A stretch of 64,000 nt of DNA. Origin: an uncultured Phycisphaerales bacterium. Lineage in GTDB: Bacteria > Planctomycetota > B15-G4 > CAYZWU01. Positions 7,619 to 54,445 of the stretch are shown here, in pieces. The stretch is from the NCBI GenBank assembly GCA_964482235.1, contig CAYZWU010000030.1, positions 2,857 through 66,856 on the forward strand, in the 5' to 3' direction. How positions within the stretch are numbered: the first letter of the stretch is position 1; each line of letters opens with the position of its first letter. The notes beneath the pieces were generated by a model. The model was not told where the DNA came from and made no database searches. It saw nothing but the letters and a program-made list of their open reading frames with translations. Position numbers and translations under genes: made by a program.

Positions 7619-7674
7619 TCCCGGACCGGCGGACGCTCTGTCAAAGCTCCCAGGAAAATCAGGAGAAGGATCAA

Positions 7675-8073: not shown

Positions 8074-8202
8074 ACTCGGCCCATCGGCATTGCATTCGAC
8101 GGAACCAGTGGGTAAGATCCGTGATTCACATAGGATGTAGTTGAAGAAGAACCGGCTGCCGACTCGACCTCGTGCAGCCTTTCGATTCGGTTGGAAGGTA
8201 AG

Positions 8203-9747: not shown

Positions 9748-9786
9748 GACCGGATCGAGTCAAGTCGTTAGAGGCAAGGAAAGCCC

Positions 9787-14812: not shown

Positions 14813-15094
14813 TAACCTATCGGACTTTTGTCGTCCGGACGCCTACCCTGGCTCGAGGTGGTCGAAATTTTGCTCCCTCAGGCATTCTTTCCTGCGGAAA
14901 GAATGAAGTCGGTCGCAAGAATCCCGACCACCTCGATCCGTGCAAGCTCCCTGCGCGTCAACCGAGTCCGACAGGTTTTCTTCTTCTCAATAATTATTTT
15001 GGAAGGAACGGCGCACAACTCTCCCTCTGTCCCACTGCAAATGAGCAGACCAGTCTGCAAACAATCTTTGTCAGGCCCTGAAGGCGCACCCAAT

Positions 15095-15175
15095 CCGGTC
15101 TTGAGCGGTTCGTTCCCTGTCTTTAAAGGGCCGTCCCCGGCCCGTCCAGACAGGGAACGGACTGCTCAAGACCGG
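15095..15175. terminator. 27-bp-stem inverted repeat between convergent lplA-like and gcvPB genes (candidate bidirectional terminator or structured element)
   Basis: CCGGTCTTGAGCGGTTCGTTCCCTGTC ... GACAGGGAACGGACTGCTCAAGACCGG with a 27-nt loop. No flanking T-tract. Confidence 0.35.
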
Positions 15176-15200
15176 CCCGTAGGCCCCCTGTCGATCATCT

Positions 15201-16649
15201 TCAAGACAAAGCAGTAAGAGAGGGCTCCTTGACGGCGCGAACCTCGTCGGGACGCCCGATGGGGGTGTTGTGCGGCGATTCCTTCAACGTGTCGGGGTCC
15301 TCCTCCGCCTCCCGGGCAATGTCGAGCATGATCTCCACGAACCGATCGAGCGTGTCCACCGACTCGGTCTCGGTGGGCTCGATCATCAACGCCTCGGGAA
15401 CGATGAGGGGAAAGTAGACGGTGGGCGGGTGAACGCCCCTGTCGATCAGGCGCTTCGCCACGTCCATGGCGCGTACCCCGTTGGGAAGGCCCTTCGCCGT
15501 GGCGACGAACTCGTGCATGCAGGTGGTGTCGAAGGGGACGCGGTACGCTTCTCTCAGCTTCACGCGGAGATAGTTGGCGTTGAGCACGGCGTTCTCCGCC
15601 ACCTCCTTCAGGCCGTCACGGCCAATGGCGAGAATGTAGAAGAAGGCCCGCACGATCACGCCGGAGTTGCCGAAGAAGGATCGCGTCCTGCCGATCGTCA
15701 GGGGGAAGTCGCGGGAGAGGCGGAGCTCGCTGTCCTGACCGACGACGCGCGGCACGGGCAGGAAAGGATCGAGGTGCGCGGCCACTCCGATGGGACCCGA
15801 GCCGGGCCCCCCGCAGCCGTGGGGCGTGGAAAAGGTCTTGTGCAGGTTGAAGTGCATCACGTCCACGCCGAAGTCGCCGGGCCGCGTGTACCCCATGATC
15901 GCGTTGAGGTTCGCCCCGTCCATGTAGACCTGCCCGCCCGCCTCGTGCACGACGTCGCAGATCTCGACCACGTCCTTCTCGAACAGGCCGAGCGTGTTGG
16001 GGTTGGTGATCATGATGGCGGCCGTGTCGTCGCCCACCTTCTTCTTCAGGCTCTCGAGGTCGACGAGGCCCGTCTCCTTCGACGACTTGATCTCCTTCGT
16101 CCTGAAGCCGGCCAGGGTGCAGGAGGCGGGATTGGTCCCGTGGGCCGAATCGGGGATCAGCACGGTCCGCCGGTCCTTCTGCCCGGCCGCGTCGAGATAG
16201 GCCCGGATCACGAGCAGGGCGGTCATCTCGCCGTGGGCGCCGGCCGCCGGGTGGAGCGAGATGCCGGGAAGCCCGGAGATCTCGGCCAGGTACTGCTCGG
16301 TCAGGCGGAAGAGCTCGAGGATCCCCTGGACCGACTCGTCCTCCTGCTCGGGATGAAGGTCGGCGAATCCGGGCAGCGCGCAGGCCGCCTCGTTGAACAC
16401 GGGGTTGTACTTCATGGTGCACGATCCGAGCGGATAGAAGGCGCTCGTCACCGCCGTGTTCCTCTTGGCCAGGTGGGTGAAGTGGCGCACCAGATCGAGC
16501 TCGCCCACCTCGGGCAGGGAGGCATCCTCGTTCCGGATCAGCTTCTCCGGGATCAGGGATTCGATGGGGGGAAGATCTTCTTCACCCGGAAACCGGACGA
16601 TGCGCCGGCCGGGATGGTCCTTCTCGAAGATCAGTCTATCGTCGAACAT
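15201..16649 (-). CDS. gcvPB: glycine dehydrogenase (decarboxylating) subunit 2
   Basis: PLP motif NLHKTFSTPHGGGGPG, and LGSCTMKYNP. 482 aa. Confidence 0.9.
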   Translation of the reverse strand: MFDDRLIFEKDHPGRRIVRFPGEEDLPPIESLIPEKLIRNEDASLPEVGELDLVRHFTHLAKRNTAVTSAFYPLGSCTMKYNPVFNEAACALPGFADLHPEQEDESVQGILELFRLTEQYLAEISGLPGISLHPAAGAHGEMTALLVIRAYLDAAGQKDRRTVLIPDSAHGTNPASCTLAGFRTKEIKSSKETGLVDLESLKKKVGDDTAAIMITNPNTLGLFEKDVVEICDVVHEAGGQVYMDGANLNAIMGYTRPGDFGVDVMHFNLHKTFSTPHGCGGPGSGPIGVAAHLDPFLPVPRVVGQDSELRLSRDFPLTIGRTRSFFGNSGVIVRAFFYILAIGRDGLKEVAENAVLNANYLRVKLREAYRVPFDTTCMHEFVATAKGLPNGVRAMDVAKRLIDRGVHPPTVYFPLIVPEALMIEPTETESVDTLDRFVEIMLDIAREAEEDPDTLKESPHNTPIGRPDEVRAVKEPSLTALS

Positions 16650-17989
16650 CAGGAGATTCCTTTCAGGCAGTCGACCAGCCGGTCCACGTCAACCCGGGTC
16701 GTCATTTCCGTCACGGCCAGGATCATCAGATCGCTGCAGCCGTCGTATTCCTTCTCCGCCTCGAAGCCGCCCACGATGCCGGCATCGAGGAGCTTCCTGT
16801 TCACCTCACCGGCCGGAACGGGGCAGCGGATCGTGAACTCCTTGAAGAACGGCGCTGCGAAGGCGAGCTCGAATCCCTTCACCTCGCAGATCCGGCGCGC
16901 CGCCTCGTGCGCCGCGGCGGCGCAGGTCCGTCCGAGGTTCCTGAACCCCTCCCGCCCCAGGGCGGCCAGGTAGACGGCGGCCCGGAGAGCGATCAGGGCG
17001 TGGTTGGTGCAGATATTCGAGGTGGCCCGGGCGCGGCGGATGTGCTGCTCCCTGGCCTGGAAGGTGAGCACGTAGGCGATGCGCCCCTTCTCGTCGACCG
17101 TCTTTCCCACGATCCGGCCGGGCATCTGGCGGATGTGCTTCTCCCGCGCCGCCAGGAATCCGAAGCCCGGTCCGCCGTAGGAAAGGGGGGTGCCCAGGCT
17201 CTGTCCCTCGCCCACGACAATGTCCGCGCCGAGCTTGCCGGGCGGCTCCAGGATAGACAGGGAGATCGGATCAACGCTGACCGCCGTGAGCACACCCTTC
17301 TCCGACGCCGCGCCGATCAGGCCGGCAGAATCCTCGATGCACCCGAAGAAGTTGGGGGATTGGAGAAGGAGGCAGGCCGTCTCGTCGTCCAGCGCATCGC
17401 GAAGGGACTTCTCGTCGACAACGCCGTTCTTTGCCGGCACCTCGGTGATGGAGATGTCGGTGTGCCGCAGATAGGTGGCCAGCACGGCCCGGCTCTGCGG
17501 GTGCAGCGTCGCGGCGGCGACGATCTTCTTCCTTCTCGTGAGGCCCACGGCCATCAGCGCCGCCTCGGTGAGCGCCGTGGCGCCGTCGTACATCGAGGCG
17601 TTGGAGATCTCCATCGCCGTGAGCATGCAGATCATGGTCTGGTACTCGAAGAACGCCTGGAGCGCACCCTGGCTGGCCTCGGGCTGGTAGGGGGTGTAGG
17701 CTGTCACGAACTCCGACCGCCCCGCCAGGTTGTCCACCAGGGCGGGGATGAAGTGGCGGTACGATCCGGCGCCGAGAAAGCTGGGCCGGCATGAAGCCGT
17801 GATGTTCCTGTGGGCCAGCTCGTACGCCCTGTTCTCGAGCTCCACCTCGGTCATCGAGCGGGGGATGTCGAACTCCCCCTTCCAGCGGATCGAATCGGGG
17901 ATGTCGGTGAAGAGATCGTTCACCGATTCGGCTCCCACCGCTTGAAGCATCCGGGCACGGTCGCTGTCCGTGTTCTGGATGTAAGACAT
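16649..17989 (-). CDS. gcvPA: glycine dehydrogenase (decarboxylating) subunit 1
   Basis: TAYTPYQPEASQGALQAFFEYQTMIC motif. 446 aa. Its stop overlaps the gcvPB start. Confidence 0.9.
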   Translation of the reverse strand: MSYIQNTDSDRARMLQAVGAESVNDLFTDIPDSIRWKGEFDIPRSMTEVELENRAYELAHRNITASCRPSFLGAGSYRHFIPALVDNLAGRSEFVTAYTPYQPEASQGALQAFFEYQTMICMLTAMEISNASMYDGATALTEAALMAVGLTRRKKIVAAATLHPQSRAVLATYLRHTDISITEVPAKNGVVDEKSLRDALDDETACLLLQSPNFFGCIEDSAGLIGAASEKGVLTAVSVDPISLSILEPPGKLGADIVVGEGQSLGTPLSYGGPGFGFLAAREKHIRQMPGRIVGKTVDEKGRIAYVLTFQAREQHIRRARATSNICTNHALIALRAAVYLAALGREGFRNLGRTCAAAAHEAARRICEVKGFELAFAAPFFKEFTIRCPVPAGEVNRKLLDAGIVGGFEAEKEYDGCSDLMILAVTEMTTRVDVDRLVDCLKGIS

Positions 17990-18182
17990 GGCAAGGCTTC
18001 CTTTGTAAAATGGATATCAAGAGCTGCGCCTCGAGACGGCGAGCTCGCATGGCGACGATGCCGGATGTCGCATCAGGATGTGGATCCGACGATCTTCTCT
18101 ATCAAGGCCCGCGGCATGAACGACTGTCCGCGAACAGGAGCCCGCGTCGGCAGAGTCCTCTATCGTTTCGTGCGGGTTCGGA

Positions 18183-18566
18183 TCAGTCCTCTTCTTCCTC
18201 GACCCGTTTCTGATACTCTGCCTCATCGAGGAGGCCCTCGTAATCGGTAAGATCCTTTACCTGGATCTTGACCATCCAGCCTTCACCGAAGCAGTCTTTC
18301 GAGATCAGCTCGAGGTTCTCGGCCACGCTCGTGTTGACCTCGACGACCTCGCCGGAAACCGGTGCGTTGAGCTCCGAAACGGCCTTGACCGATTCGACCT
18401 CGCCGAAGGGATCGTTCTGATCGACCTTGTCGCCCACTTCGGGGAGCTGGATGAAAACCAGGTCGGACAGATGCTTGACCGCGAACTCCGACAATCCCAC
18501 GGTGACGATATTGCCCTCCTGCAGGGCCCATTCGTGACTTTCCAGGTACTTTCTCTCCCCGGTCAT
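18183..18566 (-). CDS. gcvH: glycine cleavage system H protein (lipoyl carrier)
   Basis: Start MTGERKYLESHEWA with an AAAGGAG RBS 8 nt upstream (ORF-track start 18584 is TTG). Lipoyl-lysine motif EVESVKAVSEL. Confidence 0.85.
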   Translation of the reverse strand: MTGERKYLESHEWALQEGNIVTVGLSEFAVKHLSDLVFIQLPEVGDKVDQNDPFGEVESVKAVSELNAPVSGEVVEVNTSVAENLELISKDCFGEGWMVKIQVKDLTDYEGLLDEAEYQKRVEEEED

Positions 18567-18832
18567 GGATTTGACTCCTTTCAATGGATGGATTTTCTAC
18601 CGAATCGCCCGCGGGTTGAACGCCGGTCCCGACCGGGATGCCTGGCGGAACCGTCCGCGCTGTCCGGGTAATGCATCGAATCACGTTGGAAAAACACCTA
18701 GTGATGAAAACAAAAACCCGGGAAGCAAGCAAGATTCTGGAACTGTTTCTTGCCTGATTTCAGCGTGCGCCGAACGGCCCGGAGGGAGGGGGATCCCCCT
18801 CGAATAGGGGAGAATCCGGAGGTTCTTTCCGG

Positions 18833-41640: not shown

Positions 41641-42492
41641 TCAGCCGGTCTTGCCGATCGCTTCCTTCAGGGCGGCCACGCGCTTTGCATCCACAGGTGC
41701 GCTCACCTCGCCGTTCGCCTTGCACCATGTCCCCACGATGGCGGCATCGGCAAAGCGGAAGACCTTTTGGGCGTTATCGGGATTCAACCCGCTGCCGGCG
41801 ATCAGGAAGGCGCCGGGAACGGCGTTGCGGACGGCCTCCAGGTCCTCGATGGCCGGGCCGGATCCTGTTGCCGGACCGGTGACGATCAGGGCGTCGGCCC
41901 GGCCGCGATAAAAAGCGTCGCAGGCGGACCGGGAGATCTCCGCGGGAACCAGGGGGCTGGCGTGCTTCACGTGCACGTCGGCCGCGATGGCGATTTCGGC
42001 ATCGATGCCGCTTCTGTACCGGAGGAGATCGTGGGCCCTCCCCTCGATGATCCCCTGGTCCGTGACCGCGGCGCCGGTGAAAACGTTGACACGGATGAAG
42101 GCCGCACCGGCGGCGAGAGCCGCGCCGAGGGCGGCAAAGCCGTCGTTCCGCAGGACGTTGATCCCTACGGGGCAGGGGAAGCGCCGGCCGATCTCGCGGG
42201 CGATCACGGCCACGAGGGCCGTTGTGTGGGGTTTCACAGTCCGGGGATGAAACGGCGCGTCGCCGAAATTCTCCACGATCAGGGCGTCGGCGCCGCCGTC
42301 GATCCAGGCCGCGGCGTCGGCCAGGGCTCTCTTCTCGATCTCTGCGATCGAAGCCCTGTGCCCGGGGCTTCCGGGAAGTGGCGCGAGATGGATCGTGCCG
42401 ATCAGCGATCCGGCGGCGAGTGGAAATGTTCCGGAAATCATCTCCGCGAGGATAGCGGACGCTTTCATCCGGTTCAACCGGGAATCCGTCAT
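41641..42492 (-). CDS. BtpA/SgcQ-family TIM-barrel protein
   Basis: GTIHLAPLPGSPG near the N-terminus is the BtpA-family hallmark. Start MTDSRL at 42490-42492. The remainder of the 953-aa ORF 41641..44502 is antisense artefact. Confidence 0.6.
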   Translation of the reverse strand: MTDSRLNRMKASAILAEMISGTFPLAAGSLIGTIHLAPLPGSPGHRASIAEIEKRALADAAAWIDGGADALIVENFGDAPFHPRTVKPHTTALVAVIAREIGRRFPCPVGINVLRNDGFAALGAALAAGAAFIRVNVFTGAAVTDQGIIEGRAHDLLRYRSGIDAEIAIAADVHVKHASPLVPAEISRSACDAFYRGRADALIVTGPATGSGPAIEDLEAVRNAVPGAFLIAGSGLNPDNAQKVFRFADAAIVGTWCKANGEVSAPVDAKRVAALKEAIGKTG

Positions 42493-42708
42493 TGTTCCCC
42501 GGCCGGCCGGTGAAGGGACTCTCGCGGAGGGACGAAAGGCCTTTTCAGGCGGGAAAGAAGAGGTATTAGCCAATTTATATATAAAGAATATCTGATATAT
42601 TTCGATAATAGAAAGTGTCGGATAAAAAAACTTATAGGTCCGGGCAGCCAACCTGGGGGGGCGGCAGAAAGACAACACCATAACTCTTGATAGAAAAAGG
42701 GGTTGAGG

Positions 42709-45066
42709 ATGAATCTCAAGACGATTTTCTGGTCCGTCATATTGTTGACGCTGCTGGCGCTCTGGAACTGCGGCGGCGGCGGGGGAGGCGGTGGCTCTCT
42801 TCAGGGTCCTGCCGAGACCGGTGACCGCGGCGGGGGCGGAGAAGGCGGAGGCACCGACGGAGGCAGCGGTTACGGTGATTCGGACTTCGAGGTCTCGAGG
42901 GGGCCCTATGGTGGGGACCGCTTCAATGTGGTGATCGATCCACTCGATCCCAACCACATCATCACCGATTCGTGCGATCAGAGCGGAATATGGCTGAGCG
43001 AGGACGGCGGCGAGGAGTGGCGCCGCTGCTCGCCGCAGGGCTCTGCTTTCGAGCGCGCCAACACGCTGATCGCCCTGATGCGCGGCAGCGAGGGCGGCCC
43101 TGACGAGATCCTGGTGGGCATCGCCGATGAGCACGAAGCCACGAGCGCATTCTGGAAGGTCCCGCTCCGGTCGCCGGACGTCGAGGCGGCCCAGGAACTG
43201 CCCGGCGTCGTCTCCCGCATCAAGCGCCTCACCGTGGACCCGCATCCCTCGCGTCCCGGGCGGATCGCCGCGGTCTCGTTCTCCCTTGCCAACCTGCTCG
43301 AGGTGAGCCTGGGAAACATCGTTTTCAGCAGCGACAGGGGCGCCACCTGGAGTCGGTGGTACGCAGGTTCCCGCTATCATGCCGTTCTCGATCTCTGCTT
43401 CGCTCACGGCGGCGAGCGCCTGCTCATCGCCTCGGCCGGCTCGCTGTCGGTCACCGACCTCAATCTCCTCTACGAGGATGAGGGGACTGACGGCGTGCTC
43501 GAGGTCATCTACTCCCTGGAGAGCAACGTTCCCATCAGGCCGGATTGGGTGGCAAGGTATTCGATCGATGAAGTTCCCTGCGTCGTCGTCGCCGATCCCC
43601 AGACCGGTGCGCTGGTCGAACCGTACACCCTTCTCACCGGAAGCCGTGTCCAGGCTTTTGCCATGGATCCCGGCCTCGAGAATGTGATCTGGTTCGCCCA
43701 CTCCCTCGGCCTGGCCCGATCGGTCAGCAACGGGATGACGGCCGAGGACGTGCAGATGGCTCTGACTGGATCGCGGAGCGGTTTCATCACCCCGATGAAG
43801 CACCAGGGCATCACCGTTCTCGATGATCCCGGCTCCGGCGGGGAGGAGACGGTCTTTCTCAGCCTCGGCGGCGGCCTCAGCTGGAACAGGGGGATCTTCA
43901 AGCTCCAGTACGACGTGGAGTCCTCCCTCTGGCAGGCGGAGCGGGTATCGCCAGGTCCATCGACGCGGTTCCAGGAATATCCCAAGGGCCCGGTCTGCGC
44001 CGCGCCGTCGGACGGGAGAAGGCTCTATGCGCCGTACTGCCAGGACTCGATTCTCCGCTCCGACAACTTCGGGGAGATCGAGACCTGGACGGTGGCGAAG
44101 AAGGGGCTGACAGGGGTCAACGTGTTCGGCGTGGTCGAGGATCCGTCGGACTCGAGCGTGGTGATGGTGACCGGACAGAACGTGATCCGGCGCAACAACA
44201 ACCGGATCGCGAACTCCGAGTGGCTGCCCTTCGTGATCCAGCAGGACCAGGTGACCGCGAACCTGAGGGCCGGAGCCATCGTCGATCCCGAGGATTCGAA
44301 CCGGTGGCTCGTGGCAGGCGGCGCCGGCGCCGGCGTCAACCTTAACGGCGGCGCCTGGCTCACGAACGACGGCGGATACACCTGGGAGCGCACGCTGGGC
44401 AGCAACGAGAACCAGGAGACCAATCCGCAGGTCTACGCCATCGCGCAGCATCCCGAGTATCCGGAACTCGTGGCGGCGGCGAGCGGGCTCTGGTGCGGCC
44501 ACGGTACGGCGGGTGTCTTTGCCAGCCTCGAGCGGGGGGCGGCAGGGAGCTTTGTCCAGGTCCTCGGCGACGGAGCCTACGGAGCCCTGGCCGCACTGGA
44601 GATCCCTGGCGAGGCGGGCACCATCCTTGCCGGCGGGGAAGCCGGCCTGGCTCTCCTCACGATCTCCGCCGGCGGCGAGGTTGAAGCAATGAAGCTCGCG
44701 TGGGAGAACGGAGCGATCGCCGCCCTGGCCTGGGACGGCACCACCGTCTACGCCGGGACCGCGGAGGGGAAGATCTTCTCCATCGAGGACGATTCGCTGC
44801 GTGAACCAGGCGCGTGGTACGAGCTCGACGACATCGGATGCGAGATAACGGCCCTGGCCGTCTCGTCGGCGAGACCGGGCGAGATCTATGCCGGAACGAC
44901 GGAGAACGGGATCTTCCGCAGCCTCGATGGAGGCGGGGTGTTCGACCTGTTCGCCAGCGGGCTGGAGAGCAGCGAGCAGAAGGTGTTCTGCCTGCTCATC
45001 TCATCGAGGGGGGACCGGCTCTACGCCGGCACGCTCGGCGGTCTTGCTGTCCGGAAGCTGGATTGA
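42709..45066 (+). CDS. lipoprotein with BNR/Asp-box repeats (two predicted beta-propellers; sialidase/sortilin-like fold)
   Basis: Signal plus Cys (LLALWNCGGGGGG) and a Gly-rich linker. Asp-box motifs SEDGGEEW, SSDRGATWS, TNDGGYTWE, SLDGGGVF. ATG 42709 with an aaggggttgagg RBS. Confidence 0.65.
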   Translation: MNLKTIFWSVILLTLLALWNCGGGGGGGGSLQGPAETGDRGGGGEGGGTDGGSGYGDSDFEVSRGPYGGDRFNVVIDPLDPNHIITDSCDQSGIWLSEDGGEEWRRCSPQGSAFERANTLIALMRGSEGGPDEILVGIADEHEATSAFWKVPLRSPDVEAAQELPGVVSRIKRLTVDPHPSRPGRIAAVSFSLANLLEVSLGNIVFSSDRGATWSRWYAGSRYHAVLDLCFAHGGERLLIASAGSLSVTDLNLLYEDEGTDGVLEVIYSLESNVPIRPDWVARYSIDEVPCVVVADPQTGALVEPYTLLTGSRVQAFAMDPGLENVIWFAHSLGLARSVSNGMTAEDVQMALTGSRSGFITPMKHQGITVLDDPGSGGEETVFLSLGGGLSWNRGIFKLQYDVESSLWQAERVSPGPSTRFQEYPKGPVCAAPSDGRRLYAPYCQDSILRSDNFGEIETWTVAKKGLTGVNVFGVVEDPSDSSVVMVTGQNVIRRNNNRIANSEWLPFVIQQDQVTANLRAGAIVDPEDSNRWLVAGGAGAGVNLNGGAWLTNDGGYTWERTLGSNENQETNPQVYAIAQHPEYPELVAAASGLWCGHGTAGVFASLERGAAGSFVQVLGDGAYGALAALEIPGEAGTILAGGEAGLALLTISAGGEVEAMKLAWENGAIAALAWDGTTVYAGTAEGKIFSIEDDSLREPGAWYELDDIGCEITALAVSSARPGEIYAGTTENGIFRSLDGGGVFDLFASGLESSEQKVFCLLISSRGDRLYAGTLGGLAVRKLD

Positions 45067-45284: not shown

Positions 45285-46738
45285 CTGCAAAACCTAAGTC
45301 TATCACCAGGGGATGATATCAAGACGAAGACGTCTGTCTAAGGGTGTGGAATTAGTCCTTGGCGTATAACGCGGACGGACTTTTCCGGAGGGGCAAAATC
45401 TAAAAATGAACTTGCAAAATAGAAATAATATTCTAATTTGCAAGACGTGATACGAAGAAGAGTTCGGCAACAACTTCTTGAGCGTCTGAAAATCCATCCG
45501 GCTGTGGCGCTGATCGGGCCACGCCAGTGTGGCAAGACCACCTTGGCGCAAACTCTGGGCGGAACCTATTTCGACCTGGAGCAGGAACCCGAACGCCTGC
45601 GCCTCGATCTGGAATGGGGGAGTCTCGAGGCAGGAAAGGACCTGGTGATTCTGGACGAGGCTCAGTCCTGGCCGGAGGTCTTCACCCGCCTGCGAGGGGC
45701 CATCGATAAGGATCGCAAGCGCATGGGCCGTTTTCTCCTGCTTGGATCCGTCTCTCCCTCGTTGATGGTTCAGGTTTCCGAATCCTTGGCAGGTCGCCTG
45801 TCGTTGATCGAGTTGACGCCGTTCTTCATGACTGAACTCACTACAAAGGCATCGCGGGAACACCTTTGGTTGTTTGGTGGGTACCCGGATGGCGGTGTGC
45901 TTGAACCCAAGCAATATCCGCGATGGCAACTGGACTACCTGGCACTGCTGAGCCAGCGGGATTTACCTTCATGGGGATTGCCCGCCAAACCGCAGACAAC
46001 CGACCGCTTGTTGCGCATGCTTGCCGCTTTGCACGGTCAGGTATGGAATGCTTCGCAGGTGGGGCAAAGCCTGGGACTTTCTTATCAGACAGTCAACAGC
46101 TACCTCGATTACTTCGAGGGCGCCTTTCTGACACGGCGACTCCAACCCTTTCAGGCGAACATCAAGAAACGGTTGGTCAAGAGCCCCAAGGTATACTGGC
46201 GCGACAGTGGTTTGCTTCATGCTCTCCTGAACGTATCGGACGAACGCGGCCTGCTGGCGCAACCATGGGTGGGGGCCAGCTGGGAGGGTTTCGTGATTGA
46301 GCAGGCGCTCGGCGAAATGTCTTCGCGCGGGCGGAATTTCAATGCCTACTACTTTAGAACCAGCGATCAGCACGAGCTTGATCTGGTGCTGGACTTCGGA
46401 AAAGATCGCTGGGCCGTCGAGGTGAAACTATCGTCCTCACCCGGCCTGGATGACATGAGACAATTGGATAAGACCGCTGACATGATCAGCGCAACACGTC
46501 GTTTCCTGGTATCGCAGACAAGCCGGTCGAGCGATGATGGGCGCCGGGTTTCCTGTAATCTGCCTTCGTTTCTGAAGCATCTTCGTGAGGAATCATAGTC
46601 GTATCAGAAAAAACACGGTCCGCCCGGTGCGCCTCCGGGTGGGCGAAAGCCTGGCAATGAACCATGGTTATACTGAACGACATGATCAAGACCGGATGTT
46701 CTTGTCGTGCGGGCATCGGACCGCGATCGCTCAGTGCA
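45285..46738 (+). mobile_element. about 1.45 kb lower-GC insert between the direct repeats, carrying one AAA ATPase gene. Candidate remnant of an integrated element
   Basis: Bounded by the imperfect direct repeats. AT-rich leader 45285-45437 (about 42% GC) with inverted repeat CTTGCAAA...TTTGCAAG. Codon usage of the ATPase gene differs visibly from flanking genes. No integrase or transposase in the window. Confidence 0.4.
45438..46598 (+). CDS. AAA-family ATPase with C-terminal DUF4143-like domain
   Basis: P-loop LIGPRQCGKTTLA, Walker B VILDEAQ. 386 aa. ORF-track start is TTG 45438. GTG 45447 is an alternative. Confidence 0.7.
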   Translation: MQDVIRRRVRQQLLERLKIHPAVALIGPRQCGKTTLAQTLGGTYFDLEQEPERLRLDLEWGSLEAGKDLVILDEAQSWPEVFTRLRGAIDKDRKRMGRFLLLGSVSPSLMVQVSESLAGRLSLIELTPFFMTELTTKASREHLWLFGGYPDGGVLEPKQYPRWQLDYLALLSQRDLPSWGLPAKPQTTDRLLRMLAALHGQVWNASQVGQSLGLSYQTVNSYLDYFEGAFLTRRLQPFQANIKKRLVKSPKVYWRDSGLLHALLNVSDERGLLAQPWVGASWEGFVIEQALGEMSSRGRNFNAYYFRTSDQHELDLVLDFGKDRWAVEVKLSSSPGLDDMRQLDKTADMISATRRFLVSQTSRSSDDGRRVSCNLPSFLKHLREES

Positions 46739-46870
46739 CACCCATGAGAGGGCCAGGTGGGTGCATGGAGCGGTCCCGGCTATTAACCCTTACGTTTTAC
46801 AGTATCAGCTACCGAAGCTCCGGCCCATCTCCAGGGCCTTCAGGTTGATTTCCACGGTCTTCGGCTTGAC
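46739..46870. repeat. direct repeat copy B (native iorB 3' end and downstream region)
   Basis: See copy A. Includes the authentic iorB stop at 46805-46807. Confidence 0.85.
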
Positions 46871-47377
46871 GTTCTTCTGCAGCGTATCGCGCCAGTTCTC
46901 CATGTCGAAATCGAGATGGTTCGAGAGGACGCCCAGCAGGAGCACATTGACGCTTCTCACGTTTCCCGCCTCGATCGCCATGGCGTTGGCATCGAGAAGG
47001 ACCGTCTTCCCGGCCTTCTCCTTGATCCGGTCTTCCAGCTTCTCCGGGTAGGTCTCCTGTCCCGAGGGAAGGAGCTCCATCGTGTTCACGATGGCCACCC
47101 CGTCGGGTTTCAGGAAGTGGAGCCACCTCAGGGCCTCCATCTTCTCGAAGGCGAGGATGAAGTCCGCCCCGCCTTCCTCGATCAGCGGCGAGTGGATCTT
47201 CTCGCCGAACCGGACGTGGCTCACCACCGAGCCGCCGCGCTGGGCCATCCCGTGCACCTCGCTCTTCTTCACGTCATAGCCCTGATCCAGAGCGAGAGCC
47301 GAGAGGATCTTGCTCGAGAGGAGGATTCCCTGGCCGCCCACACCGCAGATGAAAACGTTGGTCATCTTCTTCGTCAT
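46805..47377 (-). CDS. iorB: indolepyruvate:ferredoxin oxidoreductase beta subunit (2-oxoacid oxidoreductase gamma-type)
   Basis: MTKKMTNVFICGVGGQGILLSS N-terminus with a gaggaag RBS. 190 aa. Follows iorA. Confidence 0.8.
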   Translation of the reverse strand: MTKKMTNVFICGVGGQGILLSSKILSALALDQGYDVKKSEVHGMAQRGGSVVSHVRFGEKIHSPLIEEGGADFILAFEKMEALRWLHFLKPDGVAIVNTMELLPSGQETYPEKLEDRIKEKAGKTVLLDANAMAIEAGNVRSVNVLLLGVLSNHLDFDMENWRDTLQKNVKPKTVEINLKALEMGRSFGS

Positions 47378-47433
47378 TTTTCTACTTCCTCATTTCATGG
47401 CTCGTGGTCTCTAACAGAAAACACGGCCTCCCG

Positions 47434-49188
47434 TCACTTCCCCTCGAGGGGCTGGATGGCTCCGGTGGGGCAGACCTGGCCGCAGACGTTGCACACGTCC
47501 CCGGCGCAGAGGATCGAGGTGATGTATGATTTCTCCTCCCCTTCCCCGCCGACCTTCGAGATGGCGGGACAGCCGGTCTTGCGGCACATGGCGCAGTTGA
47601 TGCAGGTCTCCGCTTCCACGGTGCGGGGGTCCCTGCCGGCCTCGCGGTTGCGCAGGATGCAGGCGCCGCGCACGACGACGAGCGAGGAGACATCCTTCGA
47701 CGTCTCCTCCTTGAGCGTCTCGAGAACGGCCTTCACGTCGTAGGCGTCCACCAGGGTGAAGCTCTCGATCCCCACGGCCTTGGCCAGCATCTCGTAGTCG
47801 ACGGCAACGGTTTCCTGGCCGGAGAGGGTCTTCCCGCTGCCGGGATGATCCTGATGTCCGGTCATGGCGGTGATCGAGTTGTCGAGCACGATCACCGTGG
47901 AGGTTCCCTTGTTGTAGGCGAGGTTGATCAGCCCGGTGATTCCCGTGTGGACGAAGGTGGAGTCGCCGATCACGGCCACGGTCTTGCGGCCCTCTTCGGG
48001 GTCGAGGGCTTTCTGCATGCCGTGGGCCGACGTGACGCTGGCACCCATGCAGATGCAGCTGTCCATGCCGTTCAGGGGCGGCAGGGCGCCCAGCGTGTAG
48101 CAGCCGATGTCGCCCATGGCGTGAAGCCTCAGCTTGCGGATCGCCAAAAAAGCGCTGCGGTGGGGGCAGCCGGAGCAGAGGACAGGGGGGCGGCCCGGGA
48201 CTTCGGCCGGGGTGAACTCGGTCCTGCTCTCGGTCAGGCTTTCCCGGACGATCCTCTGGTTCAGCTCGCCGCAGAGCGGAACCTTCGCCTTGCCGACAAC
48301 GTCGATGCCGGCCAGCCGGGCGGCCTCCTCGATGAACGGCTCGCCCTCCTCGACCACGTAGACCGTGTCGACCTTGGCGGCGAAGGCCTTGACCTTCTCA
48401 TCCGGGAAGGGATAGCACATGCCGAGCTTGAGGAAGGAGGCCCCGGGGAAGGCTTCGCGCGCATACTGGTATGAGATCCCTGAAGCGATGACGCCGATCT
48501 TCGTGTCGGCCATCTCTTCCTTGTTGAGATCGCTCGTCTCCGCGAGCTCCTTCAGCTTGCCGAGCCGCTCCTCAAGGTCCTTGTGGCGGACACGGGCGTT
48601 GGCCGGGATCAGGACGCGCTTGCGCATGTCCTTCTCGTAGCTTACCTCCTTCGGCTGGACGGGATCGTTCGTTTCCACCGGTGTGAGAGCGTGGCAGAGG
48701 CGGGTGCTCATCCTGAAGAGGATCGGCGTCCCGTACTCCTCGGAGATCTCGAAGGCCCGGACCAGGAGGTCCTTCGATTCCTGCGAATCGGTGGGCTCGA
48801 TCACGGGGAGCTTGGCGAACTTGGCGTAGAGCCGGTTGTCCTGCTCGTTCTGCGACGAGTGCATTCCCGGATCGTCGCAGCAGACGATGACCAGCCCGCC
48901 GTGGGCGCCGATGTACGAGGCGCTGAAGAGGGGATCGGCCGCCACGTTGAGCCCCACGTGCTTCATCACCGCCATGCTTCTCTGGCCGGTGAAGGAGGCG
49001 CCGAGGGCGACCTCGACGGCCGCCTTCTCGTTGGGGCACCACTCGGAGTAAACCGTTTCGTACTTCACGAGATTTTCGAGAATCTCCGTGCTGGGTGTGC
49101 CGGGATAGGCGGCTGCAAGCTTGACCCCCGCCTCGAATGCACCCCTGGCAACGGCCTCGTTTCCTGATATGAGTTCTGCCATCGTCAA
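47434..49188 (-). CDS. iorA: indolepyruvate:ferredoxin oxidoreductase alpha subunit (TPP and 4Fe-4S binding)
   Basis: GAFEAGVKLAAAYPGTPSTEI, the TPP GDIGCYTLG region, and C-terminal CINCAMCRKTGCP and CNVCGQVCP ferredoxin motifs. Confidence 0.85.
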   Translation of the reverse strand: MTMAELISGNEAVARGAFEAGVKLAAAYPGTPSTEILENLVKYETVYSEWCPNEKAAVEVALGASFTGQRSMAVMKHVGLNVAADPLFSASYIGAHGGLVIVCCDDPGMHSSQNEQDNRLYAKFAKLPVIEPTDSQESKDLLVRAFEISEEYGTPILFRMSTRLCHALTPVETNDPVQPKEVSYEKDMRKRVLIPANARVRHKDLEERLGKLKELAETSDLNKEEMADTKIGVIASGISYQYAREAFPGASFLKLGMCYPFPDEKVKAFAAKVDTVYVVEEGEPFIEEAARLAGIDVVGKAKVPLCGELNQRIVRESLTESRTEFTPAEVPGRPPVLCSGCPHRSAFLAIRKLRLHAMGDIGCYTLGALPPLNGMDSCICMGASVTSAHGMQKALDPEEGRKTVAVIGDSTFVHTGITGLINLAYNKGTSTVIVLDNSITAMTGHQDHPGSGKTLSGQETVAVDYEMLAKAVGIESFTLVDAYDVKAVLETLKEETSKDVSSLVVVRGACILRNREAGRDPRTVEAETCINCAMCRKTGCPAISKVGGEGEEKSYITSILCAGDVCNVCGQVCPTGAIQPLEGK

Positions 49189-49258
49189 TCACCTTTCGAT
49201 GCTGCCGAAAAAGTTCGTCCCTTCGAGCCGCTCCGCATGGGCGGCCGGGAAGGGTTTT

Positions 49259-49450
49259 CTAGCGATGATATTTCATGAGATTTTTCCAGGACCGATCATA
49301 CGTCTTCTCGCCCTCTTCTGTGAAGAAGCAAGCGGGAATCTCGCCGTTGTCCCTGTGGTTGCGGACACAGAGACAGCAGTTGCCGTGGTTCGGGCACGCA
49401 GTGTAGGTGCACCTGCAGTTCTTGATATTCTCGTTCTGCCTGCATTCCAT
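49259..49450 (-). CDS. 63-aa cysteine-rich protein (8 Cys, putative metal-binding small domain)
   Basis: MECRQNENIKNCRCTYTACPNHGNCCLCVRNHRDNGEIPACFF. AGGAGA RBS 8 nt upstream of ATG 49448-49450 (ORF-track start 49468 is GTG). Resembles my memory of the Cys-rich small domain family (CxC...CPxHGxCCxC). Confidence 0.5.
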   Translation of the reverse strand: MECRQNENIKNCRCTYTACPNHGNCCLCVRNHRDNGEIPACFFTEEGEKTYDRSWKNLMKYHR

Positions 49451-49464
49451 GAAAAAATCTCCTG

Positions 49465-49968
49465 TCACGTCATCCCGCCGAGAAGGCGGATCACTGCTCC
49501 CGGTTCGCTGATCGCCATGAACCTGTCGAGGATGTCATCCTCCTGGAGAAGCTCACCCAGGTGGCGGTAGATTCTCAGATAGACCTTGTCGTCGTACGGC
49601 GGACCCACGATGGGAACGAAGACCTGGACGTCCAGGCCGTCGGCGGCGCCGAAGGGAATTCCCTCGCGCGACCGGAGAAAGCCGACCACCGTGCTCTTGG
49701 CCTGGAGCGTCCGGACGTGGGGGATCGCCACGGCATTGCCGATGGCGGTGCAGGCCCGCTTCTCCCGGTTCAGGAGATCGGTGTAGAGCTTGCTGCGATT
49801 GCCGACCCGGCCCGACTCGTAAAGGAGGTCGGAGATCCTGCCGATCACGCTCTCACGGTAGTGGTTCACGATCCGCTTATCCAGAGCCGTTTCCTCCAGT
49901 TCGAGATCGCGCGGGATATCGAGCTCCAGGTCGATCAGGCTTTCATTGATGTAGCGGGTCAAGCTCAT
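49465..49968 (-). CDS. PTS EIIA type-2 domain protein (PtsN / IIA-Ntr-like)
   Basis: TAIGNAVAIPHVRT carries the phosphorylatable His motif of PTS_EIIA_2. Start MSLTRY overlaps the rSAM stop (ATGA). Confidence 0.65.
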   Translation of the reverse strand: MSLTRYINESLIDLELDIPRDLELEETALDKRIVNHYRESVIGRISDLLYESGRVGNRSKLYTDLLNREKRACTAIGNAVAIPHVRTLQAKSTVVGFLRSREGIPFGAADGLDVQVFVPIVGPPYDDKVYLRIYRHLGELLQEDDILDRFMAISEPGAVIRLLGGMT

Positions 49969-51545
49969 GGTGTTTCCGTTCTGGTGGCCCCGCCCCACTG
50001 CTTCGCCGGTCCGGAAAAGCCCTGGTTCGCCTCCTCGAAATCGGAGCGGACCGCCATGACCTGCGTGTAACGGATCGAGTAGTGAAGCTTACCCTCGGTG
50101 CAGAACCTGTCGGAGAGGCGGCGGTCCTCCTCGAGGATCTTCCCGCTGTGGGCGGCCCAGGCCTCGGCGTCGAGCGCCTCCAGGTCGGCAGCGAGCCTGC
50201 CGTAGGTGCCCTCGAGCCCGAAGCCGGCGCGCCCGTTGACGTACCAGTGGAAGCAGCGCCTCAGCTTCTCGATGAAGAGGGAGAGGCCGGGCTCGAAGCG
50301 AAGCACGCTTCCCTCGTAAAAGGTGTCCTTGCCCTCCATCAGCGATCGGTCGACCAGGTTGTGCCTGTCGCAGATCTTCTTGATCTCCGTTCCCGGGAAG
50401 GGAAAGAAGACCGACCAGCGGAACCGTCCGGGACGGACGCGGGCCACGAGGTCGATGGTGGCTTCCAGGTCCTCCCTCTCCTCGAGCGGCAGCCCGATCA
50501 TCAGGAACGCCGACGTGTGAAGCCCCGCCTCCTCGGCCATGGCGAAAGCGTCCACGATCTGCGCGTTCGACATGATCCTGTGGAGCACGTCCCTCCTGAT
50601 CCGTTCCGACCCCGATTCGATCCCGAACTTCACGATCATGCAGCCCGCCTCCTTCAGGGCCTCTGCCATGTCCCGGGTGAAGCTTTGCACGTGGGCGTTC
50701 ACCACGAAGGGGATTCCGAGTCCCAGCTCCCTGTAGCCGCGGCAGAAGTCGAGGACCGTCTTCTCGTCCAGGGTGAAGAGGTCATCGTCGAAGATGAACG
50801 TCCGGATCCCCGGATGCCGGGCAGCCAGGTCCCCGGCCTCGCCGAGGACGCGTTCGAGGGGGTACCGCCGCAGGTACGCGGCCGGCTTGACGCCCGCCTC
50901 GGTACGGTAGCGGTTGACGATCTCGTGGTTGAAGCAGTAGGAGCAGCGGAAGGGACATCCCCGCGAGGTGAGGAGCGACATCCAGCCGTTCATCCGGTCG
51001 AGCATGTGGTCGAGGTCGAAGATCTCGAAGTCCTTCGGCGGAAGCGACTCGAGAGACGGGAAGGGGCCCAGGGCGTTCCGCTTGTACTCCCCGTCGCGGA
51101 ACGCCCAGATGCCCTGGACCGCCGTCACGTCGGCGTCCTCCTTCATTGCAGCGACCAGGCGCGGCAGGGAGACGTCGCACTCGCCGATGGCAATGAAGTC
51201 GAAGATGCGGTCCGCGGCGATCCCTTCAGGGTCCATGGCCGCGTGCACCCCGCCGATGGCCAGGGGGAAGGAGTACTTCTTTTTGATCTCCCGGGCCAGG
51301 GTCAGGGCGTACTTGTACTGCTGCGACATGACGGAGAAGCAGATCAGGTCGGGATCGAACCGACGGATCTCGGCGAGAAGCTCTTCCGTCGTGGGGAGGT
51401 CGTAGAGAGAGTTGTTCAGGTTGATCAGCCTCGTTTCCGCACCGATATCCTTCAGCGCGCCCGAGAGGGCGGCGATGCCGTGGTTGAAGCCCTCCTGGCT
51501 GTTGATATTCGGATAGATGAACAGGATTCGAGCCTGGTATTTCAC
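49965..51545 (-). CDS. B12-binding-domain radical SAM enzyme (class B rSAM)
   Basis: N-terminal Rossmann-like B12-binding region (ILFIYPNIN...LICFSVMSQQY...LAIGGVHAA), then LTSRGCPFRCSYCF CxxxCxxC radical SAM motif. 526 aa. Confidence 0.8.
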   Translation of the reverse strand: MKYQARILFIYPNINSQEGFNHGIAALSGALKDIGAETRLINLNNSLYDLPTTEELLAEIRRFDPDLICFSVMSQQYKYALTLAREIKKKYSFPLAIGGVHAAMDPEGIAADRIFDFIAIGECDVSLPRLVAAMKEDADVTAVQGIWAFRDGEYKRNALGPFPSLESLPPKDFEIFDLDHMLDRMNGWMSLLTSRGCPFRCSYCFNHEIVNRYRTEAGVKPAAYLRRYPLERVLGEAGDLAARHPGIRTFIFDDDLFTLDEKTVLDFCRGYRELGLGIPFVVNAHVQSFTRDMAEALKEAGCMIVKFGIESGSERIRRDVLHRIMSNAQIVDAFAMAEEAGLHTSAFLMIGLPLEEREDLEATIDLVARVRPGRFRWSVFFPFPGTEIKKICDRHNLVDRSLMEGKDTFYEGSVLRFEPGLSLFIEKLRRCFHWYVNGRAGFGLEGTYGRLAADLEALDAEAWAAHSGKILEEDRRLSDRFCTEGKLHYSIRYTQVMAVRSDFEEANQGFSGPAKQWGGATRTETP

Positions 51546-51754
51546 GAGATTAGATCCATCTTCCGTCGATGCGGTGCTGCCGCTGCTTCCTGCTCCCGGG
51601 TCCTTGCATCCGAAGCAGACGTTAAAAGTTGAGATATTACTATAAGAGGCAGGGTTTCATCCAGCCGGTATTGATAGATATTTGTGAAATATTTGTTCGA
51701 AAAGGGGACTGCCCATAGAATACGATCTCCGAGAAATACGGATGGAGGCTTCTC

Positions 51755-54445
51755 ATGGCAATCTCTGCTTCCCGATCCCTGTTCCTGGTGATCCTGGCTG
51801 CTCTGGGCGCCGGGCTGATCGCTCAGGAGTCGGCCGCCCAGGATTCCGGCCGCGACAAGATCGAGTGCTATACCTGCCGCGACACGGGTCTCGTTCCCTG
51901 CGAGGACCACAAGGCCTCCGCCGACTGGTGCCGCGACTTCCATTTCTACTGCTCCGAGTGCATGAAGGAGCAGGCCTGCTGCCGGGGCAGGGGTTACAGG
52001 CCCTGCGATTGCGTCGATCGTGACTGGGAGAACCTGGTTCTCGATCCGGGATACGAGCTGTTCGATGGCGGGATCGAGGCCCGGCAGCCCCTGGTCGAAT
52101 TCATGAAGGCCGATCCGATCTATCTGGTGACCGAGCACTTCTTCGTGATGAGCACGCTGGAGGGGATGAAGCTGTCGCCCAACCAGGTGGAGGAGATGTC
52201 CGCCGACCTGAATCCGATGAAGAAGAACTTCCCCTGGGTCTTCCGGAACCTGCTGAACATCTCGCCCCACGCCATGGCCCATCTCTACGCCCACAGGCTG
52301 GAGAAGATCTACGAGAAGTACTGCGAGGCCATCGGAGTGACAGTGGAGGAAGACCGGGGCATCCCCTACTCGGGGCGGCTCACCGAGGTCTTTCTCTGCG
52401 GCCAGGTCAAGGAGCAGAAGGCCTGGCAGGCGCGGCACGGCGGGGCATCGCTGACATCGGGGTCGTCGGGAAAGTTCGCCCTGTCGCCGCTCTCGAGCCC
52501 AGCCGGCGGGCGGCATCGCAAGTCGTACGGGCCGAACGTGAGCGGCGACACCAACTTTCACGACGGGGTGATCCACCTGACGTCGCGATGCCTGCTGGAG
52601 CGGTTCTTCTGCCGCCAGGGCGGCAAGTTCCCGCCCGGGTGGCTGAAGGTCGGCTTCCCGCACTGGATGGAGCAGCAGATCCTCAAGCAGTGCAGCTACT
52701 ACCTGGTCAACATCGAGGTGAAGGGGCTGAGCGAGGAGTGGGTCGTGTCGGGCTGGGACCGCCGCGCCGTCTCCCTGGCCCGGCGCAGCAACACCGTGAC
52801 CTTTCCCGTCCTGTCGAAGAAGGACTTTGCCGATCTGGGTTTCAGGGAGCATGTGCTGGCCTGGAGCTTCGTCGACTTTGTCCTGAGGAACCAGCCCAGG
52901 GAGAAGTTCCGGGATTACTGGGACAACCTCCGGAGCCGGATGCATCCCAGGGACAGCCTGTTGACCGCCTATGACTGGTCCGAGCTCACGCTGGAGAACA
53001 ACTGGCGGTGCGATCTCCTCATGCAGGCGAACGAGTTCGAGGACCTGTCGCGGGCCGAGAGGTTCGTGGCCGAGTTCGATCGCGCGCTGCTCCACCCGGA
53101 CCTGGAGACCCGTGCGTCGGCTTCCTACTTCCTCAAGTACAGCAACACCCTTGCCGCAGCCGAGCGTATCCTTCAGGCCTTTCAGGAGAGCGAGGTTGTC
53201 GTGCGGGCATCGGCGCTGGCGGCGCTGAAGGAGTTCGAGAGCGAGGCGGCGCTCCGCTGGGTGGTGGAGAACGGGCTGACCCACGCCTCCGAGCGCGTGA
53301 GGCGCAACACGGCCATCGCGCTGGGAACGATGCCGGGATTGCTGGAGATCACGCTCCCGCTCCTGCTGAAGCTTCTCGAGGACGGCAAGGCGGCGGCCCG
53401 GGCCGGCGCCGTGCGCGCCCTGGGCGAGCTGCACCCTGACGAGGCCTTCCTGCCCGTGGCCGACATGGCGACGGACAAGAGCCCCGAGGTCAGGGTGGAG
53501 TGCGCCCTCGCGCTCTGGAACTTCCGGGAGGACGGGGCCCTGACCCAGGTGCTGACACTGCTTCGCGACGAGGTGTGGGCCGTGCGTCTCGCCTCGATCC
53601 GGTCGCTTCATTACATCGAGGACAAGCGGATGATCCCCGCTCTCATCGAGCGGCTGCGCGCCGAGACGGGGAGGCTGCGCGAGGATATCCTCGACCTCCT
53701 GGTGAAGAAGACACATCAGGACTACGGCCTCAAGCCGGACCGGTGGACCTGGTGGTGGAACACCTACGGCGGGGACTTCAAGTTCGGCGCCGGCAAGTCC
53801 AAGTCGCAGGAGCACAAGATACGGTACGCCATCCAGTACCACGAGGTGGAGACGTGCTCCAAGAAGTTCATCTTCCTCGTGGATACGTCGAGCAGCATGA
53901 ACGAGATCGTGGCCGTGGAGAAGGTGGGCGGCAAGACCTACGGCAAGGGCGACCTCAACAAGAAGAAGATCAACGTGGCGCAGATCGAGCTGGTCCGTCT
54001 CCTGCGCGAGTTCGACAAGAACATCCTCTTCAACATCATCACCTTCAACGACGAAGTGGGGCAGTGGAAGAAGAACGTCGTGGCCGCATCGGGGGGGCAG
54101 AGGAAACAGGCCGAGAAGTATGTCTGGGACATCAAGCCGCCCGACAAGGCGGCCACCAACATCTACGACGCCTTGATGATGGCCTTCGACATGGTGGACG
54201 CCGGCTTCGCCAAGCGGAAGTACGAATCCGTGGTGGACACGATGTTCCTCCTGTCCGACGGCCGTCCCACGGCGGGGGCCGTGACGGACGTTGACATGAT
54301 CCTCCGGACGGTGAGGGAGCGTAACCGCGTGCACGGCATCAAGATCCATACCTTTTCCCTGGGCGGCCGGAGCGGCGATCCCTATTTCCTCAAGAAGCTC
54401 GCGGAGATCACGGGGGGGCAGTACCAGGTAATCCGTGTAAGGTGA
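51755..54445 (+). CDS. secreted protein with Cys-rich N-terminal module, HEAT-like (PBS-lyase-type) repeats and C-terminal von Willebrand factor A domain
   Basis: Signal peptide. CYTCRDTGLVPCEDH...CSECMKEQACCRGRGYRPCDC. Repeats RVRRNTAIALG, AVRALGEL, VRVECALAL, VRLASIRSL. vWA MIDAS-like FLVDTSSSM...LLSDGRPT. Confidence 0.6.
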   Translation: MAISASRSLFLVILAALGAGLIAQESAAQDSGRDKIECYTCRDTGLVPCEDHKASADWCRDFHFYCSECMKEQACCRGRGYRPCDCVDRDWENLVLDPGYELFDGGIEARQPLVEFMKADPIYLVTEHFFVMSTLEGMKLSPNQVEEMSADLNPMKKNFPWVFRNLLNISPHAMAHLYAHRLEKIYEKYCEAIGVTVEEDRGIPYSGRLTEVFLCGQVKEQKAWQARHGGASLTSGSSGKFALSPLSSPAGGRHRKSYGPNVSGDTNFHDGVIHLTSRCLLERFFCRQGGKFPPGWLKVGFPHWMEQQILKQCSYYLVNIEVKGLSEEWVVSGWDRRAVSLARRSNTVTFPVLSKKDFADLGFREHVLAWSFVDFVLRNQPREKFRDYWDNLRSRMHPRDSLLTAYDWSELTLENNWRCDLLMQANEFEDLSRAERFVAEFDRALLHPDLETRASASYFLKYSNTLAAAERILQAFQESEVVVRASALAALKEFESEAALRWVVENGLTHASERVRRNTAIALGTMPGLLEITLPLLLKLLEDGKAAARAGAVRALGELHPDEAFLPVADMATDKSPEVRVECALALWNFREDGALTQVLTLLRDEVWAVRLASIRSLHYIEDKRMIPALIERLRAETGRLREDILDLLVKKTHQDYGLKPDRWTWWWNTYGGDFKFGAGKSKSQEHKIRYAIQYHEVETCSKKFIFLVDTSSSMNEIVAVEKVGGKTYGKGDLNKKKINVAQIELVRLLREFDKNILFNIITFNDEVGQWKKNVVAASGGQRKQAEKYVWDIKPPDKAATNIYDALMMAFDMVDAGFAKRKYESVVDTMFLLSDGRPTAGAVTDVDMILRTVRERNRVHGIKIHTFSLGGRSGDPYFLKKLAEITGGQYQVIRVR

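Follow-up and report, generated by a model that had tools for sequence, protein, structure and literature searches.

Radical S-adenosylmethionine (SAM) enzymes and cobalamin enzymes need low-potential reductants, and nitrogenase is served by a dedicated low-potential electron supply, the nifJ (pyruvate:ferredoxin oxidoreductase, PFOR)-nifF (flavodoxin) pair. The class B radical SAM enzymes MgmA (9CCB), AprD4 (6FD2), TsrM (6WTE), OxsB (5UL4), CysS and TokK each join a B12-binding Rossmann domain at the N-terminus to a CxxxCxxC radical SAM core and end in a helical domain; none of them is known to have an enzyme IIA (EIIA) protein of the phosphotransferase system (PTS) as a partner, and literature searches found no report of one. 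Indolepyruvate:ferredoxin oxidoreductase (IOR) handles indole- and aryl-pyruvates, and its canonical gene contexts are paaK/ACT-domain genes or amino-acid catabolic genes. The EIIA protein PtsN of Pseudomonas putida, when unphosphorylated, binds and inhibits pyruvate dehydrogenase, a thiamine pyrophosphate (TPP)-dependent 2-oxoacid enzyme, and PtsP senses glutamine and 2-oxoglutarate (PMC13104625). Here we describe a locus that brings such proteins together, on a 64,000-nt stretch of contig CAYZWU010000030.1 from an uncultured Phycisphaerales bacterium (the window, to which coordinates refer). Five consecutive genes encode a radical SAM enzyme with a B12-binding domain (rSAM), an EIIA protein, a 63-residue cysteine-rich protein of family DUF6485, and the two subunits of IOR. 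All five genes are new members of known families, and the rSAM-EIIA-DUF6485-IOR combination was not found in the literature searched, which held nothing relevant on DUF6485, on rSAM with PtsN or EIIA, or on rSAM with heptosyltransferase.

All five open reading frames (ORFs) were found on the minus strand where the sequence-only reading of this DNA had placed them. The rSAM gene (49965-51545, GTG start, 526 amino acids) comes first, and its TGA stop codon (49967-49965) shares the tetranucleotide ATGA with the ATG of the EIIA gene (49968-49966), giving the 4-nt overlap already described. The EIIA gene (49465-49968, 167 amino acids) ends with a TGA at 49465, and the DUF6485 gene (49259-49450) starts with an ATG at 49450, so that 14 nt lie in between and not 12 as first counted; the ribosome-binding sequence AGGAGA, which had also been pointed out, is present at 49463-49458, 7 nt 5′ of this ATG. 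From the TAG of the DUF6485 gene, ending at 49259, to the ATG of iorA (47434-49182, 582 amino acids) at 49182 there is a gap of 76 nt, against the 70 bp given earlier, and the 56-nt spacing between iorA and the last gene, iorB (46805-47377, 190 amino acids), was confirmed. Upstream, the rSAM gene and a HEAT/VWA gene (51755-54445, plus strand) diverge from an intergenic region (51546-51754) that presumably holds the promoter of the operon; no sigma-70-like site was found in it. Downstream, a convergent AAA_14/DUF4143 gene ends at 46598. There were no terminators in the gaps of the operon, the three terminator-like sites detected (shuffled mean 4.2) each lying within coding sequence, and no internal terminators or promoters rose above shuffle expectation. 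No riboswitch or leader RNA matched Rfam in the whole window at the gathering score or in 46500-52000 at E ≤ 1. An 89-nt stretch in the gap between DUF6485 and iorA, with a GC-rich hairpin at about 49219-49254 (minus strand), folds at −32.8 kcal/mol with no T-run after it; the hairpin was rejected as an element, being not significant (z = −1.74) and found in a relative at locus L084 and not at L086. Judged from its layout, the five-gene rSAM-EIIA-DUF6485-iorA-iorB set is a genuine operon.

The arrangement was then compared across relatives. Of the candidates scored, 1065 proteins belonged to the rSAM family at E ≤ 1e-20, most of them from Planctomycetota and some from Acidobacteria and Thermodesulfobacteriota. 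The 24 closest rSAM clusters (56-100% identity) were monophyletic in a neighbour-joining tree and are referred to as clade A; 11 distinct clade-A lineages, the window included, had inspectable loci. The EIIA gene lay directly 3′ of the rSAM gene in all 11 (rSAM identity 56-100%), with either a 4-nt overlap or a gap of 33-64 nt, and a DUF6485 gene followed the EIIA gene in eight of the 11, in two of which gene callers had missed it. The uncalled DUF6485 ORFs are intact (L084:10676-10867 and L085:8039-8230, with 82.5% amino acid identity, and L177 at about 9780-9970), so absence of this 63-residue gene from the annotation of an assembly is unreliable. Across the seven other clade-A lineages that have it, DUF6485 showed 60-83% amino acid identity, and the ratio of nonsynonymous to synonymous substitution rates (dN/dS) was about 0.1 where measurable, dS being saturated for most pairs. 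The low ratio indicates that the gene is translated and constrained, and the saturation that the lineages are old enough for a kept gene order to mean something. Loss of the neighbourhood in relatives had been named in advance as the result that would speak against the cluster; the rSAM-EIIA pair was kept in every lineage. The small ORF, named in the same way, was present and under purifying selection in most lineages and absent from the orthologous loci L001-L003.

IOR genes adjoined the unit in every clade-A locus long enough to show it, and did so in two forms, either as co-directional canonical iorAB (type 1) or as convergent paralogous iorA′B′ (type 2). Type 1 loci are the window, with rSAM-EIIA-DUF6485-iorA-iorB; L084 and L085 (83% rSAM identity), which follow the window order to the contig end, where iorA is cut and iorB is not seen; L086 (65%), with the order of the window; and L001, L002 and L003 (67-69%), which read rSAM-EIIA-iorA-iorB with 30-100 nt between EIIA and iorA and without DUF6485. 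In the type 2 loci L089 (60%), the P0017 contig (58%), L091 (56%) and L177 (57%), rSAM-EIIA-DUF6485 is followed by convergent iorA′-iorB′. The P0016 contig (60%) carries rSAM-EIIA-DUF6485, then a convergent second B12-rSAM gene, and then ends. The order and orientation of rSAM-EIIA(-DUF6485) were thus kept in 11 lineages despite rearranged flanks, which by this comparison of gene order makes it more than a chance arrangement. The cluster occurs only in one lineage of uncultured Phycisphaerae, which is probably anaerobic; one further metagenome locus, L097, has the same arrangement. The combination had at first been put down as one not recognised; none was found in the literature searched, and its occurrence is limited to this lineage.

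Both subunits of the window IOR passed their equivalog cut-offs (IorA, TIGR03336, 680.9 against 650.9 bits, only 30 bits over; IorB, NF005322, 249.7 against 237 bits), in agreement with the first assignment as an aromatic 2-oxoacid:ferredoxin oxidoreductase. IorA has POR_N, TPP_enzyme_C and Fer4_21 domains, the last being a C-terminal 2×[4Fe-4S] ferredoxin-like domain, and IorB has a POR domain, so that the TPP, POR and ferredoxin-like domains of canonical IorAB are present; family membership suggests specificity for arylpyruvates. It differs from canonical IorAB in following rSAM-EIIA-DUF6485, and in sister lineages its place is taken by a paralogue without the ferredoxin-like domain. The products of iorA′ and iorB′ are 41% and 40% identical to IorA and IorB of the window; IorA′ has no Fer4 domain, and IorB′ matches NF005324 and not NF005322, with an extension of about 70 amino acids in L091 and L177. 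In these two loci (L091:10413-14578 and L177:10110-14268, both minus strand) iorA′ and iorB′ form an operon, with gaps of 11-15 nt, with a third gene, rSAM2, and this operon converges on rSAM-EIIA-DUF6485. The rSAM2 product is a KedN5-like B12-rSAM; it was considered as a paralogue of the window rSAM and rejected, being only 22% identical and of a different family. L091 and L177 therefore hold a second pairing of IOR with a B12-rSAM in the same lineage.

The window rSAM matched the B12-binding domain PF02310 (52.3 bits, cut-off 32.1) and the Radical_SAM domain PF04055 (73.3 bits), and its CxxxCxxC motif (C197/C201/C204) was invariant in the family alignment. An AlphaFold 2 (AF2) model was confident (predicted local distance difference test score, pLDDT, 88.4). 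Its top Foldseek matches were MgmA, AprD4, TsrM, OxsB, CysS and TokK (E 1e-16 to 1e-21), and it superposed on MgmA, TsrM, OxsB and TokK, having the helical C-terminal domain as well; the best sequence match in the PDB was AprD4. By Pfam and by predicted fold the protein is a class-B-type enzyme, as had been proposed, with putative use of cobalamin. Unlike the named class B enzymes, to which it is only 14-21% identical, it belongs to no named equivalog. When it was searched against the NCBIfam equivalogs HpnJ, HpnR, BchE, TsrM, PhpK, AprD4, ApyD, MgmA and BzaD, as the sequence-only reading had suggested for known class B families, no score exceeded its cut-off; the best was ApyD (122.5 against 750), followed by HpnJ (98.5 against 577.6), BchE (84.7 against 481), AprD4 (80.7 against 500) and HpnR (47.6 against 650).

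Distant members of the rSAM family stand in other contexts. In 15 of 80 rSAM-family loci the gene abuts genes for a glycosyltransferase family 9 (GT9) heptosyltransferase and/or an RfaE-like PfkB kinase, often a few nucleotides apart. These loci come from Thermodesulfobacteriota, Brocadiales, Acidobacteria and Planctomycetia, and their rSAM members (44-52% identity) lie inside ADP-heptose/lipopolysaccharide (LPS) inner-core clusters with an RfaE/HldE-like kinase. GT9 is directly downstream of rSAM in L047, L053, L061, L065, L066, L072, L078 and L079 and divergent upstream in L012 and L031, and the PfkB kinase flanks rSAM in L070, L074 and L077. No GT9 or RfaE gene was found near any clade-A locus. 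The contexts of the distant members, which are the only clue to the substrate of rSAM, hint at a cell-envelope sugar and point, for the family, to a substrate related to sugar or to the LPS core.

The EIIA protein matched PTS_EIIA_2 (PtsN/fructose-type; PF00359, 81.2 bits), and its closest solved structures are PtsN proteins. Its phosphorylatable histidine, His84, lies in the motif RE..T.G..AIPH, aligned to the active-site histidine of PtsN, and was invariant in six orthologues; the protein was 56-80% conserved across locus types. It shares with PtsN (EIIA-Ntr) the PTS_EIIA_2 fold, the phospho-histidine motif and a stand-alone length of about 160 residues, and its gene adjoins that of a TPP-dependent 2-oxoacid enzyme, the class targeted by P. 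putida PtsN. It differs in being translationally coupled to a radical SAM gene, in belonging to Planctomycetota and not to Proteobacteria, and in having, close to its N-terminus, some 15 additional residues that form an acidic segment.

The small protein, submitted to a profile search as had been recommended, matched DUF6485 (PF20095, 35.9 bits against a cut-off of 24). It is a typical full-length member with all of the residues that are invariant among 40 diverse members: the eight cysteines counted earlier (C3, C12, C14, C19, C25, C26, C28 and C41) and H32, in the pattern C-x8-C-x-C-x4-C-x5-CC-x-C-x3-H-x8-C. The AF2 model (pLDDT 93.1) is compact, with four short helices, and no PDB entry matched by sequence or by fold. 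The family comprises 551 clusters at 50% identity, from Hydrogenedentota, Elusimicrobiota, bacteria of the candidate phyla radiation (CPR), DPANN archaea, Clostridia and Thermotogota. Its members have a fixed length and share 50-60% identity between phyla. Among the best 150 of the 551 cluster representatives, lengths were 50-132 amino acids and no Rosetta-stone fusions were found; a single member, P0241 (128 amino acids), is a tandem duplicate. Only in the present lineage, among about 95 loci examined, is DUF6485 operonic with rSAM and EIIA. Elsewhere its neighbours include the series VKOR/DsbA, QueH, DUF6485 in six loci (L101, L103, L106, L112, L137 and L176), a LipA-like rSAM in three (L162, L164 and L172), Fur in three (L094, L129 and L173; L094 with znuABC), a corrinoid protein in one (L095:6362-7006), and, in Ammonifex, gatCAB and a leucine-type operon. 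The Fe-S-, metal- and corrinoid-related neighbours may point to a role with metal cofactors, the sample being small and partly from one lineage.

We tentatively read the locus as a redox module, which we hold to be possible rather than probable, in which IOR would pass electrons to the B12-rSAM, phosphorylation of EIIA at His84 would act as a gate, and DUF6485 would serve as a small protein with a metal cofactor. IOR would oxidise aromatic 2-oxoacids to yield low-potential electrons by way of its own ferredoxin-like domain, and these would feed the reductive activation of rSAM, that is, reduction of its [4Fe-4S] cluster and of cob(II)alamin. EIIA would be a switch working by protein-protein contact, which toggles rSAM and/or IOR according to whether His84 is phosphorylated; that state might be set by a regulatory PTS that reads carbon and nitrogen status, by analogy with the action of PtsN on pyruvate dehydrogenase. 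DUF6485 would be a small Cys8His accessory protein binding Fe-S or Zn, an electron carrier or cluster donor, helpful but dispensable. The roles that the sequence-only reading had put forward, DUF6485 as a metal/Fe-S donor or redox partner and EIIA in phosphorylation-dependent regulation, are thus retained here as putative ones. The redox module is supported mainly by the fact that IOR and a B12-rSAM are paired twice in the lineage. By analogy it resembles nifJ-nifF-nitrogenase, in that genes for a 2-oxoacid:acceptor oxidoreductase, for a small redox or metal protein and for an enzyme in need of a strong reductant lie together, and differs from it in that DUF6485 is neither a flavodoxin nor a ferredoxin. 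That the EIIA phosphocarrier gates a B12-type rSAM or its IOR supply, with DUF6485 as a new class of Cys8His metalloprotein for Fe-S or corrinoid enzymes, is doubtful.

Several observations weigh against the redox module. In 77 other rSAM-family loci (44-54% identity) no EIIA gene was found within 10 kb with a profile hidden Markov model at E ≤ 1, nor was an IOR or DUF6485 gene found nearby, so rSAM does not generally need these partners. AprD4 has the same B12-binding domain but is a diol dehydratase and not a methylase, so the function of rSAM is not readable from that domain. The EIIA protein falls below the PtsN equivalog cut-offs (TIGR01419, 37.8 against 138.7; NF008145, 32.9 against 221) and scores higher on fructose IIA models (61.6 and 54.8), also under their cut-offs. 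No gene for enzyme I (EI) or HPr/NPr was found in about 10 kb upstream, 20 kb downstream and the other scanned parts of the window, five ORFs between 18.8 and 32.1 kb and at 54.7-57.7 kb being unscanned or without a Pfam match, and the rpoN-hpf-ptsN-rapZ-npr context was likewise not found in the scanned parts. The description of this protein as PtsN-like in the sequence-only reading thus holds for the PTS_EIIA_2 domain and the AIPH histidine, and fails for the equivalog cut-off and for a ptsN-type context. DUF6485 has no ferredoxin (CxxCxxCxxxCP) or rubredoxin (two CxxC knuckles) motif, is missing from L001-L003, and in 83 of 84 loci of other taxa has no rSAM of this family, EIIA or IOR nearby. 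Further neighbours recur in clade A, though their positions are shuffled from locus to locus (a CarboxypepD_reg-repeat protein, HEAT/VWA, a PAS-histidine kinase, BtpA and a sulfatase); part of the conservation is therefore plain synteny, and gene order inherited within one lineage could account for much of it. Finally, the two forms of IOR could reflect differential loss of an ancestral pair and not repeated recruitment.

Plain lineage synteny is nearly as likely as the redox module. On this explanation, which we regard as somewhat unlikely in its full form, the functional unit would be rSAM-EIIA(-DUF6485), with rSAM as a housekeeping enzyme of the cell envelope acting on a heptose or LPS-core sugar, and IOR would be a syntenic neighbour from ordinary aromatic amino-acid fermentation. 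It would account for an rSAM family that is widespread and mostly without conserved neighbours, for the heptosyltransferase and kinase genes beside 15 of its 80 loci, and for the wider synteny common to clade A; the type 2 IOR genes, being convergent, are transcribed separately. It sits less well with iorAB, which in the window, L084, L086 and L001-L003 is co-directional across gaps of 30-100 nt that lack a terminator, and with clade A itself, where GT9 and RfaE genes are absent from the surroundings. Synteny does not cover every feature: the order rSAM-EIIA-DUF6485 is fixed, two IOR subfamilies keep the adjacency, and IOR′ is operonic with an unrelated B12-rSAM.

It is unlikely that EIIA is instead a dedicated PtsN-type regulator of IOR, tying aromatic amino-acid catabolism to nitrogen and carbon status, with rSAM a co-transcribed bystander. 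The immediate succession of EIIA and iorA in L001-L003, the adjacency of IOR in all sufficiently long loci and the inhibition of a TPP-dependent 2-oxoacid enzyme by P. putida PtsN (PMC13104625) all fit such a regulator. The company that EIIA keeps does not, for it is always found with rSAM, by the ATGA overlap or a gap of at most 64 nt, even where IOR is inverted or replaced, and it is 56-80% conserved while the IOR alpha subunit differs by 59% between locus types.

Quite improbable, in turn, is a small-molecule pathway in which the B12-rSAM or B12-rSAMs alkylate or rearrange an aromatic or indole substrate and IOR makes or uses the matching 2-oxoacid or acyl-CoA. The tryptophan 2-C-methyltransferase TsrM is among the best structural matches of rSAM, IOR takes indole- and aryl-pyruvates, and the rSAM2 gene that is operonic with IOR′ is of a KedN5-like C-methyltransferase type, but the operon lacks an aminotransferase, a CoA ligase, a transporter and any other tailoring gene, all matches to named methyltransferase equivalogs are far under cut-off, and the 77 distant loci do without IOR.

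A role of DUF6485 as protein or peptide substrate of rSAM, to which its position two genes downstream and the peptide or protein modifiers among the best NCBIfam and structural neighbours of rSAM (ApyD; MgmA, a methyl-coenzyme M reductase glutamine methylase) might have pointed, is essentially excluded by its conservation pattern and distribution, since it is 50-60% identical across phyla at fixed length with no leader/core split, folds as a confident compact domain (pLDDT 93), stands alone in 83 of 84 other loci and is absent from L001-L003, which keep rSAM. The candidate of a ribosomally synthesised and post-translationally modified peptide (RiPP) precursor was rejected for the same fixed length, lack of leader or variable core, compact fold and persistence of rSAM without it, as the sequence-only reading had expected; its absence from three orthologous loci marks DUF6485 as an accessory part and not a RiPP precursor.

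Other features of the window were also recorded. A cluster on the plus strand (5978-11795) encodes the methylmalonyl-CoA mutase large subunit, a glyoxalase-type epimerase, a carboxyltransferase, a biotin carboxylase and a biotin carboxyl carrier protein; this propionate/methylmalonyl-CoA pathway cluster shows the organism to use a B12 enzyme. At 14045-18584 there are genes for an LplA-type lipoate-protein ligase, glycine cleavage P-protein subunits 1 and 2 and the H-protein. The segment 39672-42492 holds a glycosyltransferase family 2 gene (plus strand), a deoxyhypusine-synthase-like gene and a BtpA-family gene (both minus strand). In both locus types a gene of the BtpA family turns up a few kb away from the cluster (the window, L091:16992-17569 and the P0017 contig), which may be synteny only. 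A 953-residue ORF at 41641-44502 (minus strand) was rejected as a high-GC artefact: its last 283 codons are the BtpA gene, and on the opposite strand lies the true gene, 42709-45066 (plus strand), which encodes 785 amino acids with no Pfam match.

If the conservation is lineage synteny only, these results would serve mainly to annotate a Phycisphaerae genome. Were the coupling functional, PtsN-type regulation would extend beyond Proteobacteria to a new class of targets, radical SAM and 2-oxoacid:ferredoxin enzymes, and the locus would be a rare case in which a B12-rSAM is encoded together with a dedicated supply of reductant. Gating by EIIA, if true, would be the first link of phosphotransferase signalling to radical SAM chemistry, and if DUF6485 is a metalloprotein, its class would be conserved from CPR bacteria to DPANN archaea. 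The locus provides a genomic handle on two uncharacterised families, DUF6485 and the rSAM family of Planctomycetota, Acidobacteria and Thermodesulfobacteriota.

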